Shown here one piece after another: positions 1-9,919 of a stretch of DNA of 47,028 nt. Position 1 is the first letter of the stretch. Every line of letters starts with the position of its first letter. Source of the DNA: a virus (taxonomy: Duplodnaviria; Heunggongvirae; Uroviricota; Caudoviricetes); the IMG/VR virus record IMGVR_UViG_2778261425_000003, one strand, 5' to 3'. Below the pieces are notes generated by a model. The model searched no databases. It was not told the origin of the DNA and was given only the letters and a program-made list of their open reading frames with translations. Position numbers and translations under genes: made by a program.

Positions 1-443
1 TGAAATGTAAAACACTACCTCTGCTGGCGATGGTTGCCACCACTCTGTTTCTGAGCGCCTGCGATGACAGGAGTGATGACCTGAAAGCTATCAGTAAATT
101 TAAGGACCTCACGCCTCCGCGCTTCAGCGATGTGGTCAGTCGGCAGGATGATGTCAGCGAAGAATGGTCACAGGTTGGCTTTTCATCAGGTCTCACCCTG
201 CAGGTCTTACGTACCCGTGAGTCGCCCGATGGCTGCGAGGGCGGTAGTTACTACTACCTCGTGGATATGCAGGAAAAAACCATCCAGCCGCTGATGAATG
301 CGCTGTGTATTGCCGATAACATCAAACTGGAATACCAGGAGGTGACGGACCCGTATACCAAAGAAAAATACTTTGAGTACGCCCATGACGGCAAACTGAT
401 GGGGCAGCTACTGATACCCTCGAACCCTGACAATCAGGAATAA
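1..443 (+). CDS. YafY/YfjS-family prophage lipoprotein; start codon lies about 1 nt upstream of the window
   Basis: Frame is open from position 3 (KCKTLPLLAMVATTLFLSAC), lipobox LFLSAC, stop at 441-443; recalled similarity to CP4-type island lipoproteins. Confidence 0.6.
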   Translation, partial: KCKTLPLLAMVATTLFLSACDDRSDDLKAISKFKDLTPPRFSDVVSRQDDVSEEWSQVGFSSGLTLQVLRTRESPDGCEGGSYYYLVDMQEKTIQPLMNALCIADNIKLEYQEVTDPYTKEKYFEYAHDGKLMGQLLIPSNPDNQE

Positions 444-465
444 AACAACGACAAAGGAGACAAGA

Positions 466-933
466 ATGACAATACTTTCACTAAGTCGGTTTATGCTGGC
501 GGGTGTACTGCTCGCGAGCTTTAATGCCTCTGCTATCCCGGGGTTCTGGCAGCAGGGTTACGGTCAGGGCAATACGGAATACAGCGTGACCGAAGCCAGC
601 GGAAAGACGTTTACCATCAACTGCACAGGGAACCCGGACCAGAATGGTTTCTATCAGCATTCAGTCTTTCTTACCCTTGCCGATGACAAGATGGTCAGTT
701 CGCACGATGACGACACTACTATCACCGTAGTGATGGATCACCAGCAGTACATTATTCCGTCCAGCCTGGGCTGGCGTAACGGCGATAACGCCTGGTTTGA
801 CTTCATCAGCAATATCTCTGAGGCCGGGCAGTTCGACGTCTACGTCAATGACCACAAAGCAGGGACCTTCACTGCGGACCGGAAGAACACTGAGAAAGTT
901 CTGTCCACTCTCGGAGACTGCAGCAACGACTGA
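466..933 (+). CDS. hypothetical exported protein with N-terminal signal peptide, CP4-type island
   Basis: 155-aa ORF with hydrophobic N-terminus ([18 protein letters not shown]), ATG preceded by AAGGAGA. Confidence 0.55.
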
Positions 934-1009
934 TAGTAGTATCTTCCCCAGCAAATCCACCCCGACAGCTAGCAGGCTGCCGGGGTTTTCTTTTATCAGG
1001 AGCCCGAAA

Positions 1010-1249
1010 ATGACCCAATCCGTGTTGCTGCCACCGGGGCCTTTCACCCGGAGACAAGCGCAAGCGGTCACTACCACGTACAGCAATATCACACTCGAAG
1101 ACGACCAGGGCAGTCACTTCCGTCTGGTGGTTCGTGATACTGAAGGCCGGATGGTCTGGCGGGCATGGAACTTTGAGCCGGATGCCGGTGAAGGTCTTAA
1201 CCGCTATATCCGCACCTCAGGCATCCGTACAGACACGGCCACCCGCTGA
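1010..1249 (+). CDS. DUF905-family small protein (YkfF-like)
   Basis: Internal ATG at 1010 with AGGA RBS; 79-aa product [20 protein letters not shown]... typical of CP4 islands. Confidence 0.6.
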
Positions 1250-1346
1250 TCGCGAAGCATTTACCCGCATTCACCTCCCCGAACACACTTTATATCCCCA
1301 TACGCCAGCCATCGCCGCTGGCGTTTTTATTGACGGAGACATACCC

Positions 1347-1805
1347 ATGACAACACAGACGCAGCACGACCTCGCACCCGCTAACCAACCCGAATTTGAA
1401 CTGACCGTCACGCCGGTCCCCGATGAACAGCGTATCGATTTCTGGCCACAGTACTTTGGCGCTATCCCGCAGTGGCTACTCCTGGAGCCGCATATCTTCG
1501 CCTGGATGGACCGCTTCTGTGAGGGCTACAGCGGTGGTATCTGGTCGTTCTACACCCTCAGCAATGGCGGCGCATTTATGTCCCCCGAGCCTGACAACGA
1601 TGAGACATGGCGTCTGTTTAACTGCCTGAACGGTAACGATGCCCAAATGAGTGCAGAAGCAGCAGGTATTGCTGTCTGCCTGATTGCGTATAGCCACCAT
1701 GCCTGCCGTACAGAATGTGACGCGATGACCGCACACTATTACCGCCTGCGGGAGTATGCCATGCAACATCCAGAGGCTCACGCCATTCTGCGTATTATCG
1801 ACTGA
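1347..1805 (+). CDS. antirestriction protein, KlcA/ArdB family (YafX/YfjX-like)
   Basis: ATG at 1347 with GGAGA RBS; 152 aa; recalled family of CP4 island antirestriction proteins. Confidence 0.7.
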   Translation: MTTQTQHDLAPANQPEFELTVTPVPDEQRIDFWPQYFGAIPQWLLLEPHIFAWMDRFCEGYSGGIWSFYTLSNGGAFMSPEPDNDETWRLFNCLNGNDAQMSAEAAGIAVCLIAYSHHACRTECDAMTAHYYRLREYAMQHPEAHAILRIID

Positions 1806-1820
1806 CCGAAGGAGCAACAG

Positions 1821-2297
1821 ATGAAACAGCTTTCCTTTTTACCCGGCGAGATGACGCCACAGGACCGGCGTCTCATTCAGCGGGCGCTCAGGGCTCTGGA
1901 CCGCCACCTGCATGAGCCCGGCGTAGCCTTCACCTCTACCCACGCCGTACGTGAATGGCTGCGACTGCATATGGCCGCGCTTGAGCGGGAAGAGTTCCGG
2001 GTGTTGTATCTGGACAACCAGAATCAGTTGATTGCCCATGAAACGCTCTTCACCGGCACGATTAACCGCACCGAGGTGCATCCCCGGGAGGTGGTCAAAC
2101 GTGCTCTGCACTTCAACGCGGCGGCGGTGATACTCGCGCATAACCATCCTTCCGGCGAGACGACACCTAGCCAGGCCGACAAAACCCTCACGCAGCGACT
2201 GGTTCAGGTGCTTCAGCTGGTGGATATCCGTGTCCCTGACCATCTGATTGTCGGTGGCAGGCAAATCTATTCGTTCGCAGAACACGGTCTGCTTTGA
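1821..2297 (+). CDS. RadC-like JAB-domain protein (YkfG/YeeS family)
   Basis: 158-aa ORF with JAMM motif region HNHPSGETTPSQAD; RBS AAGGAG. Confidence 0.8.
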   Translation: MKQLSFLPGEMTPQDRRLIQRALRALDRHLHEPGVAFTSTHAVREWLRLHMAALEREEFRVLYLDNQNQLIAHETLFTGTINRTEVHPREVVKRALHFNAAAVILAHNHPSGETTPSQADKTLTQRLVQVLQLVDIRVPDHLIVGGRQIYSFAEHGLL

Positions 2298-2305
2298 GGT
2301 ATTAC

Positions 2306-2527
2306 ATGAAAATTATCAGTAAACGCAGGGCAATGACGATATACCGCCAGCATCCTGAGTCCCGAATCTTTCGCTACTGCACCGGCAAATACCAGTGGCA
2401 CGGTAGCGTCTGTCATTACACCGGCAGGGACGTTCCGGATATCGCCGGAGTCCTCGCGGTATACGCCGAACGCCGCCAGGACCGCAATGGGCCCTATACC
2501 TGCCTGATGAGCATCACCCTGAACTGA
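2306..2527 (+). CDS. DUF987-family protein (YeeT/YkfH-like)
   Basis: ATG 2306 six nt after GAGG; 73 aa MKIISKRRAMTIYRQHPES... Confidence 0.6.
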   Translation: MKIISKRRAMTIYRQHPESRIFRYCTGKYQWHGSVCHYTGRDVPDIAGVLAVYAERRQDRNGPYTCLMSITLN

Positions 2528-2545
2528 CAATAGTGGAGAACTGTA

Positions 2546-3225
<680 letters not shown>

Positions 3226-3290: not shown

Positions 3291-3326
3291 GCGCCTGCTA
3301 CTACCCGGCAGGCGCGTTATCTTTTT
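3291..3326 (+). terminator. rho-independent terminator downstream of the toxin gene
   Basis: Perfect 8-bp stem GCGCCTGC/GCAGGCGC, 9-nt loop, then GTTATCTTTTT. Confidence 0.6.
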
Positions 3327-3596
3327 ACGGACAAACAATCATGCAACCAGAAGTTGAAGTATTAACCGATCATAATGAGCTAATTTGTTCGAGCTTTATT
3401 GAACACATTGCCAACACATTAAATTTAGGAGTGGTGTACAACTAAACCTGCAGCCAAGGATGTATAGTGAGCGAAGCCCTATCAGGCCTTTTTGGTCAGT
3501 AGATAAGATTGATCTTCGTTGATAGAATTTACTTACACCAGCTGTTACATTAAGATAATTTTTTGGTGGGAGAATGATAAGATCTTACGTAACAAT

Positions 3597-3652
3597 TTGA
3601 TTTTAATGGTGCCGATAATAGGAGTCGAACCTACGACCTTCGCATTACGAAT
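3597..3652. repeat. attR: 56-bp direct repeat of the thrW 3' end (55/56 identical to 45575-45630)
   Basis: ttgatttTaatggtgccgataataggagtcgaacctacgaccttcgcattacgaat repeated at 45575-45630; covers the 3' 46 nt of the tRNA plus 10 nt of flank. Confidence 0.85.
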
Positions 3653-3872
3653 CATAAGAATCCGCTTCTAATTCAAAGTATTACCCCATCAACACTGCGC
3701 TCACACGTCCCACCACATCAAAACATGTAAAGCCTTGCAAGCCATTGTGAGGCCTTATGTGTCTCAGTTTTGTCCCACTACGACCTGCACAGAAAATAAG
3801 AAAATAGCGGTGATATCAAACAGTACAGAAGTCTTTTTTCTTTCAAATGGAGAAACTGATTAACCCGTTTAA

Positions 3873-4100
3873 TTGTACTCCTCATGGGTAATCAGCAGTC
3901 CTCAGAGTAATGGAATGGCAGAAAGATTCGTGAAAACGATGAAGGAAGACTACATCGCGTTCATGCCGAAACCGAATGTAAGAACGGCATTGCATAATCT
4001 TGCAGTGGCGATCGAACATTACAATGAAAACCATCCGCACAGTGCGTTGGGTTATCGCTCTCCGCGAGAATATCGACGTCAGCGGGTAACGTTAACTTAA
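3873..4100 (+). pseudogene. IS3-family (IS2-like) transposase C-terminal fragment
   Basis: 75-aa ORF ending ...[30 protein letters not shown]; only the last part of a transposase, no upstream catalytic region or inverted repeat. Confidence 0.6.
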
Positions 4101-4141
4101 GATACACCCCCTGTCTGGAAATAAGGGGGCAAGAACAATGA

Positions 4142-4885
4142 TCAGATTCCCTGGTGAGTAAGAATTTTACTTTCTGAACTCCTCTGAGAGTATTGACTTG
4201 GAGAAACACCAAAATAACGTCTAAATACATAAGTAAAGTATGAGACACTGGCATAACCACAGACCTTAGCTACTTTACTAATAGGATAACAACGAGTGCT
4301 GAGTAAATATTCAGCCATTTGCATCCTCTCATCAAGTATGATCTTACTGAATGATATCCCCTCTTCTTTCAATTTCCTCTTTAGTAAACTTTCGCTGAGA
4401 TATAATCTTGATGATATATCCTTAAGACGCCATGGTGCAGATAAATCCGTATGAATAATCGTTTTAACTTTAGCCCCTGTGCTTTTCAAACATCCAAACA
4501 GAAATACTCCAAATTGTTTTTCAGAAGAAAATGCAGAGAGACATGTAAAAGCAATAGACTCATCAAAAATTTCTATGTATTCAGCACAGTGATTAGCCCA
4601 ACTAATTAATCCTTTAATTAAACTGAAGTTAGCAAAGTTTATTTTTAAATAAGATGGATATTCCCTACAATCAGAAATATCCCTTAAGTTATTAGCTTTC
4701 AAATAGCGACTAATAAACTCAGCGCCAAAATCCGCCACTATCACTCTTTCAGGATATGTCAGGAAAAAATCTCTAGAGCTAGAGTCGACAAGTACAGATG
4801 AACCTCTCTCCAGAAACACACTTTCTTTTCCGAAATAAATATCAAAGGACTCCAAAATCAATATAACTGAACATGTAGTTGCCAT
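4142..4885 (-). CDS. AraC/XylS-family transcriptional regulator (YdeO/AppY/GadX-like), low-GC cargo gene
   Basis: C-terminal double HTH (..SESLLKRKLKEEGISFSKIILDERMQMAEYLL...CGYASVSYFTYVFRRYFGVSP); ATG 4885 with GGTGG RBS, in-frame ATG also at 4894. Confidence 0.75.
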   Translation of the reverse strand: MATTCSVILILESFDIYFGKESVFLERGSSVLVDSSSRDFFLTYPERVIVADFGAEFISRYLKANNLRDISDCREYPSYLKINFANFSLIKGLISWANHCAEYIEIFDESIAFTCLSAFSSEKQFGVFLFGCLKSTGAKVKTIIHTDLSAPWRLKDISSRLYLSESLLKRKLKEEGISFSKIILDERMQMAEYLLSTRCYPISKVAKVCGYASVSYFTYVFRRYFGVSPSQYSQRSSESKILTHQGI

Positions 4886-5469
4886 ATCATCCACCCAATT
4901 TAACTGAAACCAGGATGAAGTATATGCATATAAAGTTCACTTTGCCAAACTTCAGTATAAAAAACCACATAAAAAATAGGGTGTGATAAAAAATACCGTA
5001 ACAATAAAGCAAAGGATTATAAATTCCGTTACAGTTACAAATGATACTCAAGAAACAATTTCTTAGGAAAAACTTATTTACAGCCAATAAGTAAGACACT
5101 TATATGATATCAAGTTTTCATAAGGCATAACTAGGCTAAATAGCTGCGCCTAATACCGCTACACTTTTGCCAGCCCATGTTTGCCTCCGGGTATTGACCC
5201 CTTCTTTACGCAACTTCAGTTCCCACCACCAACTTTGCGGCAGCTTTGTAGGATCAATGTCTAAAAGAATAATGGTGACCGATAAGAAAACGACTGAATA
5301 ACTGCAGATTTTCGCTCAAAACCTTCCTGTCAGATCCATAGCGAATCAAGTGCTGAATGTCACAGTATCGAACAGAAAACAGTGACGATCTAACCCTTCA
5401 AGAATATTCTACGATTGTTCTGTTTAGGAAAAGCAAGGCGGGAAGTCGGGAGATAAGTCATTGATAAAG

Positions 5470-5535
5470 TGGCGGAGAGAGGGGGATTTGAACCCCCGGT
5501 AGAGTTGCCCCTACTCCGGTTTTCGAGACCGGTCC
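5470..5535 (-). other. truncated tRNA-Ser(CGA) 3' fragment (serU-like); att-site relic, not a functional tRNA
   Basis: Reverse complement reads GACCGGTCTCGAAAACCGG (anticodon arm, CGA), long variable arm, GGGGGTTCAAATCCCCC T-arm, CTCTCTCCGCCA; D-arm and 5' acceptor strand absent. Confidence 0.75.
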
Positions 5536-5615
5536 AATCATCAAACGAAACATAAAATTAATTCACATTATGAGGAAAAGTATCTTTTTTGTACTATGTA
5601 AATTCAAAGACTTAG

Positions 5616-6485
<870 letters not shown>

Positions 6486-6542
6486 GTCTTTAAGTGATAA
6501 GCATAAACCGCAGCACGATCTTGCATACGACGTGCTACGGTT

Positions 6543-7097
6543 TCATTTATCTCCGACCGGAAACTTCTTATACAGTGTCGATATACCAACATCATAGATG
6601 ATCGCCACCTTCTGGCGAGGAACGCCTGATGCAATTAATCGCCCGGCCTGCGCCCATTGTTCTGGTGTAAGTTTGGGACGACGTCCACCAATTCGTCCCT
6701 GTGCGCGAGCAGCCTCCAGTCCAGCTTTTGTTCGTTCAACAATCAGCTCTCGTTCCATTTCAGCCAGGGCCCCCATCACATGAAAGAAAAAACGCCCCAT
6801 CGGTGTGCTGGTATCAATTGAATCCGTCAGACTACGAAAGTTGATGCCTCGTTCGCGCAACTCCTCCACCAACACGACAAGATGCCGCATACTACGCCCC
6901 AGCCGATCCAGCTTCCAGACAACCAGAGTGTCACCTGCCGATAATGTCCTGAGCAGTTTTTTCAGTCCCGGCCTTTCGGACTTTGTGCCGCTTATCTTAT
7001 CTTCAAAAATCAGCTCGCATCCTGCACAGTTCAGCGCATTACGTTGTAGATCTGTGTTCTGGTCATTTGTTGACACACGTACATAGCCAATAAGCAT
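6543..7097 (-). CDS. pin: serine DNA invertase, Pin/Gin/Hin family
   Basis: 184 aa MLIGYVRVSTNDQNTDLQ...; catalytic Ser in YVRVSTNDQ, C-terminal HTH; GGGAG RBS before ATG 7097. Confidence 0.9.
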   Translation of the reverse strand: MLIGYVRVSTNDQNTDLQRNALNCAGCELIFEDKISGTKSERPGLKKLLRTLSAGDTLVVWKLDRLGRSMRHLVVLVEELRERGINFRSLTDSIDTSTPMGRFFFHVMGALAEMERELIVERTKAGLEAARAQGRIGGRRPKLTPEQWAQAGRLIASGVPRQKVAIIYDVGISTLYKKFPVGDK

Positions 7098-7123
7098 GGT
7101 AGATCTCCCTGACAAAAGCAGGA

Positions 7124-7516
7124 ATGATGCCATTTGCTCGTTATTTATGTATTTTTATAAACGTTGGTTTGGGAGAAGCGGCTAAAAGGAATGTAGGGAC
7201 AGGGGCGAATCAGATACCTGATATGGGTAGCTTCACGCTTTCTGTTTCAGGTACTGGATATCAAAAATTACCATCAGGTTTTATTCTTCAGTGGGGCTCA
7301 ATCGGCGCACCAGGCATTGCACAGGATGTAGTAACCCATTTCCCGATTGCATTTCCAAACAGATGTCTGCGTGTTTTGGTCTCACAAGACTACACACCAG
7401 ATAGCGGGGCTGTTGGTTATATTGCCTGTGCAGGTTTTAGTCCCGACCCGGTTAAATTTATATCCAGAGCCAGTACTCCTGGCCTCGGCGCTTCATTTTT
7501 AGCGTTAGGCTGTTAA
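7124..7516 (+). CDS. alternative tail-fibre C-terminal segment (Sv'), promoterless in this orientation
   Basis: Open frame running from the left crossover site; no own start context; would fuse to the constant N-terminus after inversion. Confidence 0.45.
7153..7178. repeat. gix/pix-like invertase crossover site (left)
   Basis: Reverse complement TTCTCCCAAACCAACGTTTATAAAAA matches the inverted copy at 9029-9054 over 14 contiguous nt plus a partial right half. Confidence 0.7.
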
Positions 7517-7537
7517 TTTAGCTATATGGAGTGAAAA

Positions 7538-7978
7538 ATGAATTACATATATTCCGCGACTACAAACTCTTTCTATCCGCTGGAGATGAAAGAGGATTAC
7601 ACTCAAGCTGACTCATGGCCAGATGATGCTGTTGAAGTTGATGAGCAAGTGTATATTGAGTTTTCCGGATTACCGCCGAAAGGAAAAATCCGTATCGCTG
7701 GAGAAAATGGTTTTCCTGCATGGTCTGAAATTCCACCACCAACACATGAGGAACAGATTGCTGCAGCCGAACTGGAAAAGCAGCAACTGATTAATCAGGC
7801 CAACGATTATATGAACAGTAAACAATGGCCTGGTAAAGCGGCTATTGGTCGTCTGAAAGGTGAGGAACTGGCGCAATATAATTTGTGGCTGGATTATCTG
7901 GACGCACTGGAACTGGTTGATACCTCCAGTGCTCCAGATATTGAATGGCCTACGCCTCCGGCAGTTCAGGCCAGATGA
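7538..7978 (+). CDS. tail fibre assembly protein (U'-type), alternative orientation
   Basis: 146 aa MNYIYSATTNSFYPLEMKEDY...; conserved C-terminus DYLDALELVDTSSAPDIEWPTPP shared with the opposite-strand paralogue. Confidence 0.75.
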   Translation: MNYIYSATTNSFYPLEMKEDYTQADSWPDDAVEVDEQVYIEFSGLPPKGKIRIAGENGFPAWSEIPPPTHEEQIAAAELEKQQLINQANDYMNSKQWPGKAAIGRLKGEELAQYNLWLDYLDALELVDTSSAPDIEWPTPPAVQAR

Positions 7979-8552
7979 CATCCGGCGCGGTGCTGGTATC
8001 TGTTGCCGTCACCGCGTCAATGTAATCCAGCACGGCGTTAAGTCGGGTTGTTTCTGCCTGCGTCAACTTCCGTCCGGCCTGTAATTTCAGCTGAATCAGA
8101 CTAATGGAAACCATTGCTGCATCAATCAGTGACTGGCGCTGTGCTTCTGCCGCTTCTACTGCGGCGCTATGCTGTGCCTCAGTATCCGTCACCCATTTCT
8201 CACCATCCCATTTATCATATGGCGTTAACGGGGCGATAGTGGTTGTATTTTCAGGGTAATCACCCGGAGCTGTGATTTCTTTGGCGTCTCCCGTTTCGGT
8301 GTTATAGACGATTTCACCGCGATGGTCTGACACATATTCCCATGATTTTAAATCCACAGAACGGCAAATTGTATAACCAGCTTTATGTGTAACTGGTGCA
8401 TCTAAACAAGAACATGCTGGGATACCGACGCCAACCGCAAGATATTCAGTTGATGTGGAAATATATTCCCGCGTTTCACCATCATAGTTATAAACGGTAA
8501 TATCCCCTGCCTTTGTAGCAACAAGTCCACTATTTAATATTGCTTTATCCAT
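7950..8552 (-). CDS. tail fibre assembly protein (U-type), currently expressed orientation
   Basis: 200 aa; C-terminus LDYIDAVTATDTSTAPDVIWPELPEA; directly downstream of the tail-fibre gene. Confidence 0.75.
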   Translation of the reverse strand: MDKAILNSGLVATKAGDITVYNYDGETREYISTSTEYLAVGVGIPACSCLDAPVTHKAGYTICRSVDLKSWEYVSDHRGEIVYNTETGDAKEITAPGDYPENTTTIAPLTPYDKWDGEKWVTDTEAQHSAAVEAAEAQRQSLIDAAMVSISLIQLKLQAGRKLTQAETTRLNAVLDYIDAVTATDTSTAPDVIWPELPEA

Positions 8553-9331
8553 TATGCTGCTCTCACGATATAGTTAAATGCAATGTTTCTTGGTCTGTTC
8601 TCTGAGGCAGTTGGCACTACTCTTGAAGCATCAAAATTGACTAAATGAGGATTGTTTGGGGTATTTGGAATGATTGTGGTGTTACCTATCGTATTACGAA
8701 GTGCTGATTGACTTACAAAAACACCACTCGCTGTATTAAAGCTAATAGCCGCATTAGCTTCGGTTTGTCCATTACCAAATGTGCCGGTTATATTACGAAT
8801 AGCATCCCCCTGAGCAGACAGAATTTCGCGCCCCGCGTCAATACCGCGCCCGTCATCCCAACCACGAATAAACTCACCACGTAAATCAGGCAATTTATTT
8901 GTTGGATAAGCCTTTGCCAGTTCCGGGTATTCTTCAGCAGAAAAAACCGCACCATTGCATTTCAGCCAGCCTGTTGGCGGAGTGGCGGAAGGCCACGGAA
9001 CAGGGACACCAACAGGTAATGCAGAGCCTTCTCCCAAACCAAGGTTTTCGAGAGCCGTTTTCACCGTGCCGTCCGATTTGATATCACCAAACGGATTCTT
9101 GCGGCTTAACAGCAGCGCACGAAGCGCGGTAAGCAGCTGGTCGTGCCGCGCCTTCTCGAGACTGGCACCGGATGCCTCCACAACGCTGCAAAGCTCCTCC
9201 TGCAACATGTCAAAGTAGTCATCATCCAGATCGGTGGCAGGCGTGCCAGTCTGGGGGTTACCACGGGTAAAACCGTTCTTACCCGCGCCGAACTTATCCT
9301 TCTGCGCGGTTTTCGTGTCTATACGATGCAT
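8552..9331 (-). CDS. tail fibre protein (constant N-terminus plus variable C-terminus in the current orientation)
   Basis: 259 aa; crossover site falls at about codon 97; position after the baseplate genes. Confidence 0.7.
9029..9054. repeat. gix/pix-like invertase crossover site (right), inside the tail-fibre gene
   Basis: TTCTCCCAAACCAAGGTTTTCGAGAG in inverted orientation relative to 7153-7178. Confidence 0.7.
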
Positions 9332-9334
9332 GGA

Positions 9335-9919
9335 TTACTCCGGATATTTAAAAATTACGTAGGTATGCGACGGGCAGAGTTTGTTAAGCACGCACTCGAC
9401 AACGGTGTCCCCCCAGATACGCAGTGCGGAATCACAGGGATCGCCACATGTCATCCAGGTGGTGTTGGTGGCGGCTGGCATGTTGACCTGCCAGTAATAC
9501 CGCCATTCCGGCGCATTCACCGCGTCAGTACAGGCCGATGAGCAGGTGAACGTGATTTTGTCGTATCGCGTGATGGTAGCGTCTGGTCTGCCCAGGGCAG
9601 CAAGCTGTGCAAGGTAAAAATCCTCATTGATGCCGCCCGCTAGGTTAACCTTCGCATCCAGTCGTTGCTGACGCTGGCGAAGGGTCTGTGTCCCTGCGGG
9701 AATACATTCATCCGGCAGGCCGCACAGACGCTCCCAGCGATTTATCAGTTCGGTGGTGGTGCGCGGATCCAGCTCCCGCATCAGGGCATCCGCACGCTGA
9801 TGAACACGAGTTAATGACGGTGCCGCACCGGCAATCGCCGGATCGCTGGCTGACCACGCCGGACCGGGCGGCAGCAGTGCCGACAACAGACGGATGTAAT
9901 CATCGTTTGTCACGTCCAT
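9335..9919 (-). CDS. Mu gp48-like baseplate/tail protein
   Basis: 194 aa; position and size in a Mu-like baseplate gene series. Confidence 0.6.

Follow-up and report, generated by a model that had tools for sequence, protein, structure and literature searches.

A Pin (e14-type) tail-fibre inversion locus in an SfI/SfV/e14-like prophage of Escherichia coli

Two tail-fibre C-termini on opposite strands, enclosed by an inverted repeat and flanked by an invertase gene, raise the question of whether such a locus is a working genetic switch, to which family of switches it belongs, and whether it serves the virion or the bacterial host. The locus was analysed within a stretch of 47,028 nucleotides, hereafter called the window. 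The region is very probably an intact Pin inversion system of the e14 type, carried by a complete SfI/SfV/e14-like temperate myovirus of approximately 42 kb that resides at thrW of E. coli. The component parts, their integrity, their reading frames and their identity to the functional e14 system were read directly from the window. By extension, the strain from which the window derives probably switches, and inversion would be expected to change the host range, as with Mu, P1 and e14.

The prophage (~42 kb) is complete and is inserted in E. coli at a tRNA-Thr gene (thrW). The tRNA-Thr(CGT) gene occupies positions 45585-45660, and the att repeat is 48 nt long. The structural genes are 96-97% identical at the nucleotide level to those of the serotype-converting Shigella myoviruses SfI, SfII, SfIV, and SfV over approximately 17 kb, and the two features by which the SfV group is recognized, integration at thrW and an SfV-type head and tail module, are both present. 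The gtrA-gtrB-gtr(type) cargo for O-antigen modification was absent from its place after the fibre genes, where the slot holds pin, PD-T4-3 and a regulator of the AraC family. The defence gene PD-T4-3 (5712-6485) adjoins pin. Integration at icd was considered as an alternative location and ruled out, as the att site is tRNA-Thr with its 48-nt repeat and the flanking 417-aa open reading frame (ORF) belongs to the Aldedh family (proA-like). The features of the inversion region are the following:

6543-7097, minus strand: pin, DNA invertase (small serine recombinase), 184 aa; Pfam Resolvase (1.8e-51) and HTH_7 (5.3e-13)
7013-7075, minus strand: candidate recombinational enhancer (Fis-bound) within the first part of pin, from a motif scan; cores at 7075-7061 and 7027-7013
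7124-7516, plus strand: P-type fibre C-terminus (SvP), gp53-like C domain, unfused at present; Pfam Gp53-like_C (4.3e-15)
7152-7177, minus strand: pin-proximal pix site, TTCTCCCAAACC-AA-CGTTTATAAAAA when read on the minus strand; core 7164-7165
7164-9042, no strand: invertible segment, 1,879 bp from core to core; homologue of the e14 P segment
7538-7978, plus strand: TfaP-like chaperone of the P-type cassette, 146 aa; Pfam Caudo_TAP (1.9e-38); 61% identical to e14 TfaP over aa 51-146
7950-8552, minus strand: TfaE-like chaperone of the E-type cassette, 200 aa; Pfam Caudo_TAP (4.6e-32); 90% identical to e14 TfaE
8552-9040, minus strand: E-type fibre C-terminus (SvE), tail-collar domain and hypervariable tip, fused at present; Pfam Collar (1.9e-15)
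9029-9054, plus strand: distal pix site, TTCTCCCAAACC-AA-GGTTTTCGAGAG; core 9041-9042 in fibre codon 97; encodes LENLGLGE
9043-9331, minus strand: constant N-terminal fibre part (Sc) of ~97 codons, not included in the segment; shares 98% identity with the N-terminus of e14 StfP

A repeat search returned inverted arms of 20 nt at 7159-7178 and 9028-9047 that are 95% complementary (19/20 overall, with 13 nt in one perfect stretch). Around these arms the two 26-bp pix copies share their inner half-sites and core and differ in their outer half-sites, which gives 20/26 identity overall. When both are read from the common inner half-site TTCTCCCAAACC, the central dinucleotide is AA at each, so that the ends could religate after a 180-degree rotation. 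In the comparison with K-12, the distal copy is identical at 26/26 positions to the site inside stfP (L002 4779-4804), and the pin-proximal copy at 25/26 positions to the pinE-proximal site of e14 (L002 6606-6631). The first-pass annotation had proposed two inverted 26-bp sites; the inverted alignment and the right-hand position are borne out exactly, and the left-hand site, given there as 7153-7178, is shifted by 1 nt. Its description of the sites as gix-like is apt for the Hin/Gin/Cin/Pin class as a whole, the precise family being Pin of e14. A 19-nt site pattern, searched with up to 3 mismatches, matched only these two places in the 47,028 bases (0.04 matches expected), and two matches were reached in 0 of 100 shuffles. 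The locus thus has exactly two inverted 26-bp sites with imperfect 12-bp half-sites and a 2-bp core. Systems of the Min or shufflon type have more than two crossover sites and permit several permutations; a multi-site arrangement of this kind (Min of p15B, shufflon) was ruled out, as only two sites occur in the window even with 3 mismatches.

The constant part Sc, presumably the portion that attaches to the baseplate, lies directly downstream of a homologue of Mu gp48/YmfQ (9335-9919). In the assembly it is continuous with the E-type cassette, forming a fibre gene of 259 aa (8552-9331, minus strand). SvE is 61.5% identical to e14 stfE' and resembles a solved short tail fibre (9cuy, 7e-31), as well as T4 gp37 and gp12; the E-type fibre region also shows 91.9% nucleotide identity to the stf/tfa region of HK97. 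The opposing cassette encodes SvP, whose ORF begins outside the segment with a leader of 13 codons and reads through the left site (FINVGLGE). SvP shares only 27% identity with the C-terminus of e14 StfP and has weak similarity to the C-termini of R-pyocin fibres; the exact 130-aa sequence occurs in 7 public contigs. The two fibre C-termini are unrelated (Collar vs. gp53-like C), and each is followed on its own strand by a Caudo_TAP chaperone gene, the two chaperone genes being convergent with a 29-nt overlap. The ORFs and Pfam domains agree with the layout expected of the family, in which the segment holds one cassette per strand and excludes the constant N-terminus and its promoter. In silico inversion yields an in-frame alternative fibre of 213 aa, which is 211/213 identical to an annotated, physically fused protein of WP4-S18-ESBL-09; both fusions are in frame. 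These results uphold what had been proposed for this region from the sequence, namely two divergent sets of fibre C-terminus and chaperone, a right-hand site at about codon 97 (the AA core at 9041-9042 falls within that codon of the gene), fusion of the minus-strand set to the constant region, and the predicted exchange of the receptor-binding domain upon inversion. As to the suggestion of predicting receptors by comparing the variable domains with known fibres, likenesses to e14, T4 and R-pyocin fibres were found, and for the receptor of either tip the PDB sequence matches give only general classes (a T4 gp12/gp37-type collar and an R-pyocin-like foot).

The invertase gene lies directly outside the left site, adjoining the segment as had been noted. 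Pin is full length, rather than inactivated, and 97% identical to K-12 PinE, with the catalytic S9 and M114 retained; its start at 7097 agrees with PinE and Gin, and the 196-aa ORF that begins at 7133 represents a version extended in the upstream direction. Its match to the crystallized Mu Gin (3uj3) has an E-value of 2.7e-94, with ~80% identity by hand count on the alignment. Over the 5' 215 nt, pin differs from the functional e14 pinE at 3 positions only. Inversion by Din invertases depends on the host factor Fis (and HU) and on negative supercoiling, and their enhancer comprises a pair of Fis sites with a spacing of 48 bp, situated early in the invertase gene at approximately 100 bp from the nearer crossover site. 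In the window, two 15-bp cores resembling a highly degenerate Fis consensus have centres 48 bp apart; their distances to the left crossover core are ~96 and 144 bp. The 48-bp pair was found only with the most degenerate consensus, two stricter Fis patterns giving no matches or one implausibly placed pair. A gapless alignment of 251 nt shows both cores unchanged relative to Mu gin, and e14 pinE departs from them at a single N position; this conservation may be protein-driven, because the cores fall on those codons of the enzyme that are best conserved (the catalytic motif). The spacing of the candidate enhancer agrees with the geometry of Hin, in which ~100 bp separate hixL from the proximal Fis site (PMC3798978). 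Pin has the wild-type M114, and M114V in Gin yields a Fis-independent mutant (PMC3575834). Inversion here would be expected to depend on Fis and the enhancer. In a scan of 6400-9500, no convincing sigma-70 promoter was found for pin (4 promoter-like matches vs. 4.7 expected from shuffles), and a terminator scan of the same interval gave nothing above shuffles.

The assembly of the window holds one orientation only, and the evidence for both orientations comes from relatives and from the cassette allele itself. Two E. coli strains, ECONIH1 and WP4-S18-ESBL-09, carry near-identical prophages at the same chromosomal site with the segment in opposite orientations; the segment interior (1,856 bp) is an exact (100%) reverse complement, and the flanking partners are swapped reciprocally at ...AACGTT/GGTTTGGGAGAAG. 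Among complete E. coli genomes, at a coverage of at least 80%, the form seen in the window was found in 22 and the flipped form in 15. In junction-specific BLAST, the window's SvE allele is joined to the pin side in the genome of XH988 (99.4% at full coverage), whereas in G47-1 and a further four genomes the same allele adjoins ymfQ/Sc. Each of the four predicted products is present as an exact public sequence (17, 56, 7, and 5 contigs). At the level of sequence comparison, inversion is documented in relatives, and complete genomes show the cassette allele of the window in both states.

In the proposed mechanism, Pin dimers would bind the two 26-bp pix sites (7152-7177 and 9029-9054) and, with host Fis bound to the enhancer in the 5' end of pin, would assemble into an invertasome. 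Both sites would then be cut at the central AA/TT through Ser9, one pair of subunits would turn by 180 degrees, and religation of the ends would leave the 1,879-bp segment flipped. Since the distal site lies in codon 97, Sc would be joined to either the E-type or the P-type C-terminus. State 1, that of the assembly, would produce Sc with the collar-domain E-type C-terminus (259 aa) followed by the TfaE-like chaperone, and state 2 Sc with the gp53-like P-type C-terminus (213 aa) followed by the TfaP-like chaperone. A population of lysogens could in this way release virions with two alternative receptor-binding tips, a form of bet-hedging on host range. For e14, inversion of the P segment by PinE has been demonstrated by reads, PCR and qPCR (PMC4272514; PMC12529663). 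In K-12, PinQ contributes more than PinE to inversion at the same sites, and the cognate Pin may therefore not be the sole or main driver (PMC12529663).

Only the shortness of the perfect match within the inverted repeat (13 nt contiguous, 19/20 overall) would favour a chance match or an assembly artefact lacking any recombination function, and such an origin is extremely improbable: two occurrences were found where 0.04 are expected, no shuffle reached that number, the experimentally defined e14 sites are matched at 25/26 and 26/26 positions (PMC12529663), and the reciprocal exchange of junctions between strains falls exactly at these sites. A structurally complete switch could also be effectively frozen in the lysogen, with pin silent or the enhancer impaired and the assembly orientation the only product. 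The single orientation of the assembly and the lack of a clear pin promoter are consistent with such a state, as are the frameshifted pinE of XH988 and the IS1 insertion in the tfaE homologue of the relative L009. We regard it as very unlikely, however, given a full-length Pin with Ser9, identical cores at both sites, the 3 differences from functional e14 pinE in the 5' 215 nt, and the open reading frames of both cassettes and both chaperones; moreover, E. coli has other invertases of the Pin family that are able to use these sites in trans (PMC12529663).

A further reading concerns not whether the segment inverts but whom the switch serves. The leader ORF from 7124 could yield a free, unfused receptor-binding domain that masks a surface receptor, so that the switch would also or mainly benefit the host. 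Both orientations contain this ORF in frame; it is conserved in e14, is annotated as a CDS in relatives, and falls into clusters of 205 and 105 members. In e14, flipping of the P segment gives rise to StfE2, which is reported to confer protection against T2 by blocking its adsorption (PMC12529663), and the orientation of the window, with a leader and a P-type domain, is analogous to the protective e14 state. A bona fide defence gene, PD-T4-3, is also the next gene beyond pin. On the other hand, SvP and the C-terminal part of e14 StfP are no more than 27% identical, so the T2-blocking activity is not transferable to it; no promoter for the leader ORF rose above chance in the scan of 6400-9500; and its Shine-Dalgarno spacing is poor, with AGGA 0-3 nt before the ATGs. 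Mu has the same kind of ORF, Mup52, which continues beyond the boundary of G and is not known to have a receptor-masking role. Because the prophage is complete here, it is simpler to assign the switch a role in virion host range, and a host-serving switch appears unlikely. By analogy with StfE2, the "silent" cassette might not be silent at all, a lysogen always making one free receptor-binding domain that possibly masks a receptor against phages; we consider this quite unlikely. If it were true, the pin end together with PD-T4-3 would form a switchable two-layer defence islet in which inversion toggles the protected receptor.

The Pin inversion switch is already known, and its copy in the window is real but ordinary. 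The e14 Pin system has been described since 1985, the homologues already bear the names pinE, tfaE and ymfQ in RefSeq, and their exact protein sequences are publicly available. The discovery value is accordingly small, and the practical value lies in annotation: since the fibre gene has two isoforms, one assembly alone gives an incomplete basis for predicting host range or receptors, and the region can be mis-joined or collapsed during assembly. The prophage also shows the former state of the defective e14, an intact SfI/SfV-type myovirus with a Pin switch, and is a further instance in which the variable slot beside pin carries an anti-phage gene (PD-T4-3).

Among known systems, the closest is Pin of e14 in K-12 (pinE, stfP, tfaP, tfaE, stfE'). 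The gene order ymfQ-stfP-tfaP-tfaE-stfE'-pinE-cargo is shared, the invertase is 97%, Sc 98%, YmfQ 98% and TfaE 90% identical, the sites match at 26/26 and 25/26 positions, a leader ORF reads through the pin-proximal site, and a defence gene follows pin. In contrast, e14 is a remnant of 15 kb, located at icd, whose baseplate has decayed (jayE is a pseudogene), whereas the window holds a complete ~42-kb prophage at thrW. The receptor domains are 27% (P-type) and 61.5% (E-type) identical, the cargo is mcrA in e14 and PD-T4-3 with an AraC-type regulator here, and the MG1655 reference has the P-type cassette fused, whereas the window has the E-type. The segment measures 1,879 bp from core to core here and is reported as 1,797 bp in e14, although the end points may differ (PMC12529663).

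Compared with SfV, SfI, SfII, and SfIV, the thrW/proA integration site and the structural module, including the Mu-like baseplate gp44-48 homologues, are shared (PMC3636060). SfV has one fibre gene and one chaperone followed by gtrV-gtrB-gtrA, without an invertase, whereas the window has a dual invertible cassette, pin, and defence and regulator cargo. The Gin/G segment of Mu and the Cin/C segment of P1 belong to the same mechanistic class, with Sc outside, two Sv and U cassettes inside, and the invertase immediately outside, and the spacing from site to invertase start is identical to that of Mu (gapless alignment). The Mu gix site, TTCCTGTAAACC-GA-GGTTTTGGATAA, differs from pix. The S coding sequence of Mu is 1,515 nt long (~500 aa), as opposed to fibres of 259 and 213 aa here, and the phage backbone is unrelated except for the Mu-like baseplate genes. 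The Hin/H segment of Salmonella shares the invertase family and the 26-bp sites of 12-2-12 structure with an AA core, as in hixL. In Hin, the Fis enhancer sits within the invertase gene at ~100 bp from the proximal site (PMC3798978), a placement to which the candidate enhancer here would correspond. On the other hand, the Hin switch turns a promoter around, giving flagellin phase variation, and the hin gene is part of its segment, whereas in the window coding sequence is swapped and pin lies outside.

The two sets of fibre C-terminus and assembly chaperone that the first-pass annotation had placed beside an invertase gene were recovered by domain matches: one cassette is gp53-like and the other bears a tail-collar domain, each has a Caudo_TAP chaperone, and a Pin recombinase gene adjoins them.

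Features of the invertible fibre region (window coordinates)
6543-7097, minus strand: Pin, serine recombinase, 184 aa (Resolvase and HTH_7)
7124-7516, plus strand: P-type variable fibre C-terminus (SvP), gp53-like by domain match
7152-7177: left (pin-proximal) crossover site, reading TTCTCCCAAACC-AA-CGTTTATAAAAA on the minus strand
7538-7978, plus strand: chaperone of the P-type cassette (Caudo_TAP)
7950-8552, minus strand: second chaperone, of the E-type cassette (Caudo_TAP)
8552-9331, minus strand: fibre of 259 aa, constant N-terminal part (Sc) plus E-type variable C-terminus (SvE), tail-collar domain
9029-9054: right (distal) crossover site, TTCTCCCAAACC-AA-GGTTTTCGAGAG
9335-9919 and beyond, minus strand: homologues of Mu gp48/YmfQ, gp47/Baseplate_J, gp46, gp45 and gp44

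The proposed repeats do align as inverted copies, since a repeat finder returned 20-nt arms at 7159-7178 and 9028-9047 that are 95% complementary. Read in the 26-bp layout of hix and gix sites (12-bp half-site, 2-bp core, 12-bp half-site), the right site lies exactly where it had been annotated; the left site is also present, but its matching register is one base off the original placement. The two sites share their inner half-site and AA core; their outer half-sites are unlike, as they are in e14 (the cryptic prophage of E. coli K-12). With up to 3 mismatches allowed, a 19-nt site pattern occurs at just two places in the 47,028-bp window, namely the two crossover sites; shuffles give an expectation of 0.04, and none of 100 contained two matches.

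The distal core falls in codon 97 of the fibre gene, in agreement with the earlier estimate, and the minus-strand cassette is the one fused to the constant region in the assembly, again as first described. In silico inversion of 7164-9042 places the same 97 N-terminal codons in frame with the plus-strand cassette, yielding a 213-aa fibre. Every part is present and intact, the two cores match exactly, and either fusion is in frame. The convergent chaperone genes overlap by 29 nt (7950-7978), and an 18-nt inverted repeat (7888-7905 / 8014-8031) flanks this overlap; this repeat is probably not a recombination site but a reflection of the C-terminal motif (LDYLDA / LDYIDA ...APD..WP) that both chaperones share and that is encoded on the two strands.

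If Pin works as Hin and Gin do, its dimers bound at both sites would assemble with Fis on an enhancer into an invertasome, Ser9 would make staggered cuts at the AA/TT core, and one subunit pair would rotate by 180 degrees before the ends are religated. The constant N-terminus would then be joined to either receptor-binding domain, with the cognate chaperone following it on that strand. Hin, Gin, and Cin systems have their Fis-bound enhancer within the 5' portion of the invertase gene. The Hin enhancer is ~100 bp from the nearer site (PMC3798978). A single motif pair in the window, scored against a weak, degenerate Fis consensus, is spaced exactly 48 bp apart (7075-7061 and 7027-7013), its centres 96 and 144 bp from the left crossover core. 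In a gapless alignment of 251 nt running from the crossover site into pin, neither candidate core differs from Mu gin, although nearby synonymous positions do; the cores coincide with the enzyme's most conserved codons. Against e14 pinE, the first ~215 coding nt hold 3 differences. By position and spacing, the pair would fit a Hin/Gin-type enhancer and is a weak candidate for one.

Both orientations occur in nature, in relatives and for the window's own E-type allele. Public assemblies were taken as a population sample of orientation states. Among complete E. coli genomes matched at a coverage of at least 80%, 22 have the window orientation and 15 match the in silico flipped query, with equal top scores. 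In ECONIH1 and WP4-S18-ESBL-09, one and the same prophage occupies one chromosomal position, and the flanking protein accessions are identical. Its junctions show a reciprocal partner swap within ...AACGTTGGTTTGGGAGAAG, and the 1,856-bp interior of one is the 100% exact reverse complement of the other. The fibre predicted from the flipped window is identical at 211/213 residues to the annotated fused protein of WP4-S18-ESBL-09. The window's E-type allele, hypervariable tip included, lies on the pin side in E. coli XH988 (99.4% identity, full coverage); G47-1 and four other genomes have it joined to ymfQ and Sc. All four predicted products (two fused fibres and two leader-fused forms) exist as exact public sequences, on 17, 56, 7, and 5 contigs. 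In e14, inversion of the P-segment has been documented from reads and PCR (PMC4272514) and by qPCR, with both PinE and PinQ acting on these repeats (PMC12529663).

Relatives carry many different cassette alleles, and some copies have decayed: one genome has IS1 within tfaE, and XH988 has a frameshift in pinE. The XH988 copy (NZ_CP019355.1, 2503-5315) has the window's E-type allele in the flipped state at the classical e14/icd locus, adjoining the frameshifted pinE, and its P-type cassette is a different one. Evidently, cassette alleles pass from one e14-like prophage to another at a different attachment site, and some copies are locked. The IS1-bearing locus (NZ_CM194533.1, 8141-9901) also has a frameshifted fibre gene in a truncated prophage; its cargo region, the top match for window 3300-6600, is 99.2% identical over the full length, and it is a decayed copy of the window's element. 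Coliphage vB_EcoM-689R6 (ON470584.1, 1-2309; deposited as a 'partial genome') has an invertase, mcrA, and then a 516-nt fibre gene, with neither chaperones nor a second cassette. The assembly seems to have collapsed or broken at the invertible region, which is a practical hazard of this switch.

The E-type tip resembles collar-bearing tips of the T4 gp12/gp37 type and a solved short tail fibre, and that of the P type has weak similarity to R-pyocin fibre feet; comparison with solved structures assigned a receptor to neither. Homology to HK97 stf/tfa (91.9% nt) spans window 7898-9052, covering the E-type chaperone and fibre C-terminus, and ends at the outer edge of the distal site. The site-encoded LENLGLGE motif may therefore also delimit a module in the horizontal exchange of fibre tips.

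An ORF that starts at 7124, outside the segment, crosses the pin-proximal site (..FINVGLGE..) and continues into the cassette that is left unfused. Its 13-codon leader (7124-7162, continuing to 7516) supplies that cassette's start codon in both orientations; e14 has the same leader, as does Mu in principle. StfE2, an e14 product of this kind, was reported in a 2025 study to block T2 adsorption (PMC12529663), and the window is in the analogous orientation. A promoter and terminator scan of 6400-9500 found no expression signals for the ORF above chance relative to shuffles. Given this, and a P-type domain only 27% identical to that of e14, it is improbable that the leader makes a free receptor-binding domain acting as a StfE2-like adsorption blocker.

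The prophage, ~42 kb long and hosted by E. coli, is bounded by a 48-nt exact direct repeat (3605-3652 = 45583-45630) and tRNA-Thr(CGT) at 45585-45660, and adjoins a proA-like gene. To its left (30-3225) lies a CP4-6-like island with YfjS/YafY lipoprotein, antirestriction, RadC/JAB, and CbtA toxin genes, so the thrW site appears to be occupied by two elements in tandem. Several complete genomes share the cargo beside pin at 99.2-99.7% identity. The gene directly beyond pin (5712-6485, plus strand; ORF from 5661) is a full-length match (PADLOC E=2.7e-140) to PD-T4-3, a single-gene anti-phage defence, with a LEM-3-like GIY-YIG Pfam domain. Elsewhere this slot holds mcrA (e14, XH988, vB_EcoM-689R6), Avs2 (STK39-3-E), or an FRG-domain gene (ECONIH1, B2, WP4-S18-ESBL-09); the pin end therefore looks like a variable hotspot for defence cargo.

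Across the head, tail, and baseplate module, nt identity to the isolated Shigella myoviruses SfI, SfII, SfIV, and SfV is 96-97%, and vB_EcoM-689R6 is equally close. These Shigella phages also use thrW, and their relatedness to e14 is known (PMC3636060). SfV has one fibre gene and one chaperone gene, then gtr cargo, and lacks an invertase; in this lineage, the Pin switch is therefore the variant of e14 type, and the phage carrying it here appears complete. The gene order of e14 (ymfQ, stfP, tfaP, tfaE, stfE', pinE, then a cargo gene) is that of the window, its two sites match those of the window at 26/26 and 25/26 positions, and close relatives carry the RefSeq names pinE, tfaE, and ymfQ. The window's Pin is 97% identical to PinE, keeping catalytic Ser9 and M114 (M114V is the change giving Gin Fis independence; PMC3575834), and matches crystallised Mu Gin at E=2.7e-94. 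The constant fibre part (98%), YmfQ (98%), and TfaE-like chaperone (90%) are likewise close to those of e14, whereas the variable domains have diverged (E-type 61.5%, P-type only 27%). The switch described in the first-pass annotation is thus real and was correctly interpreted, and is an instance of the long-known e14-type Pin system.
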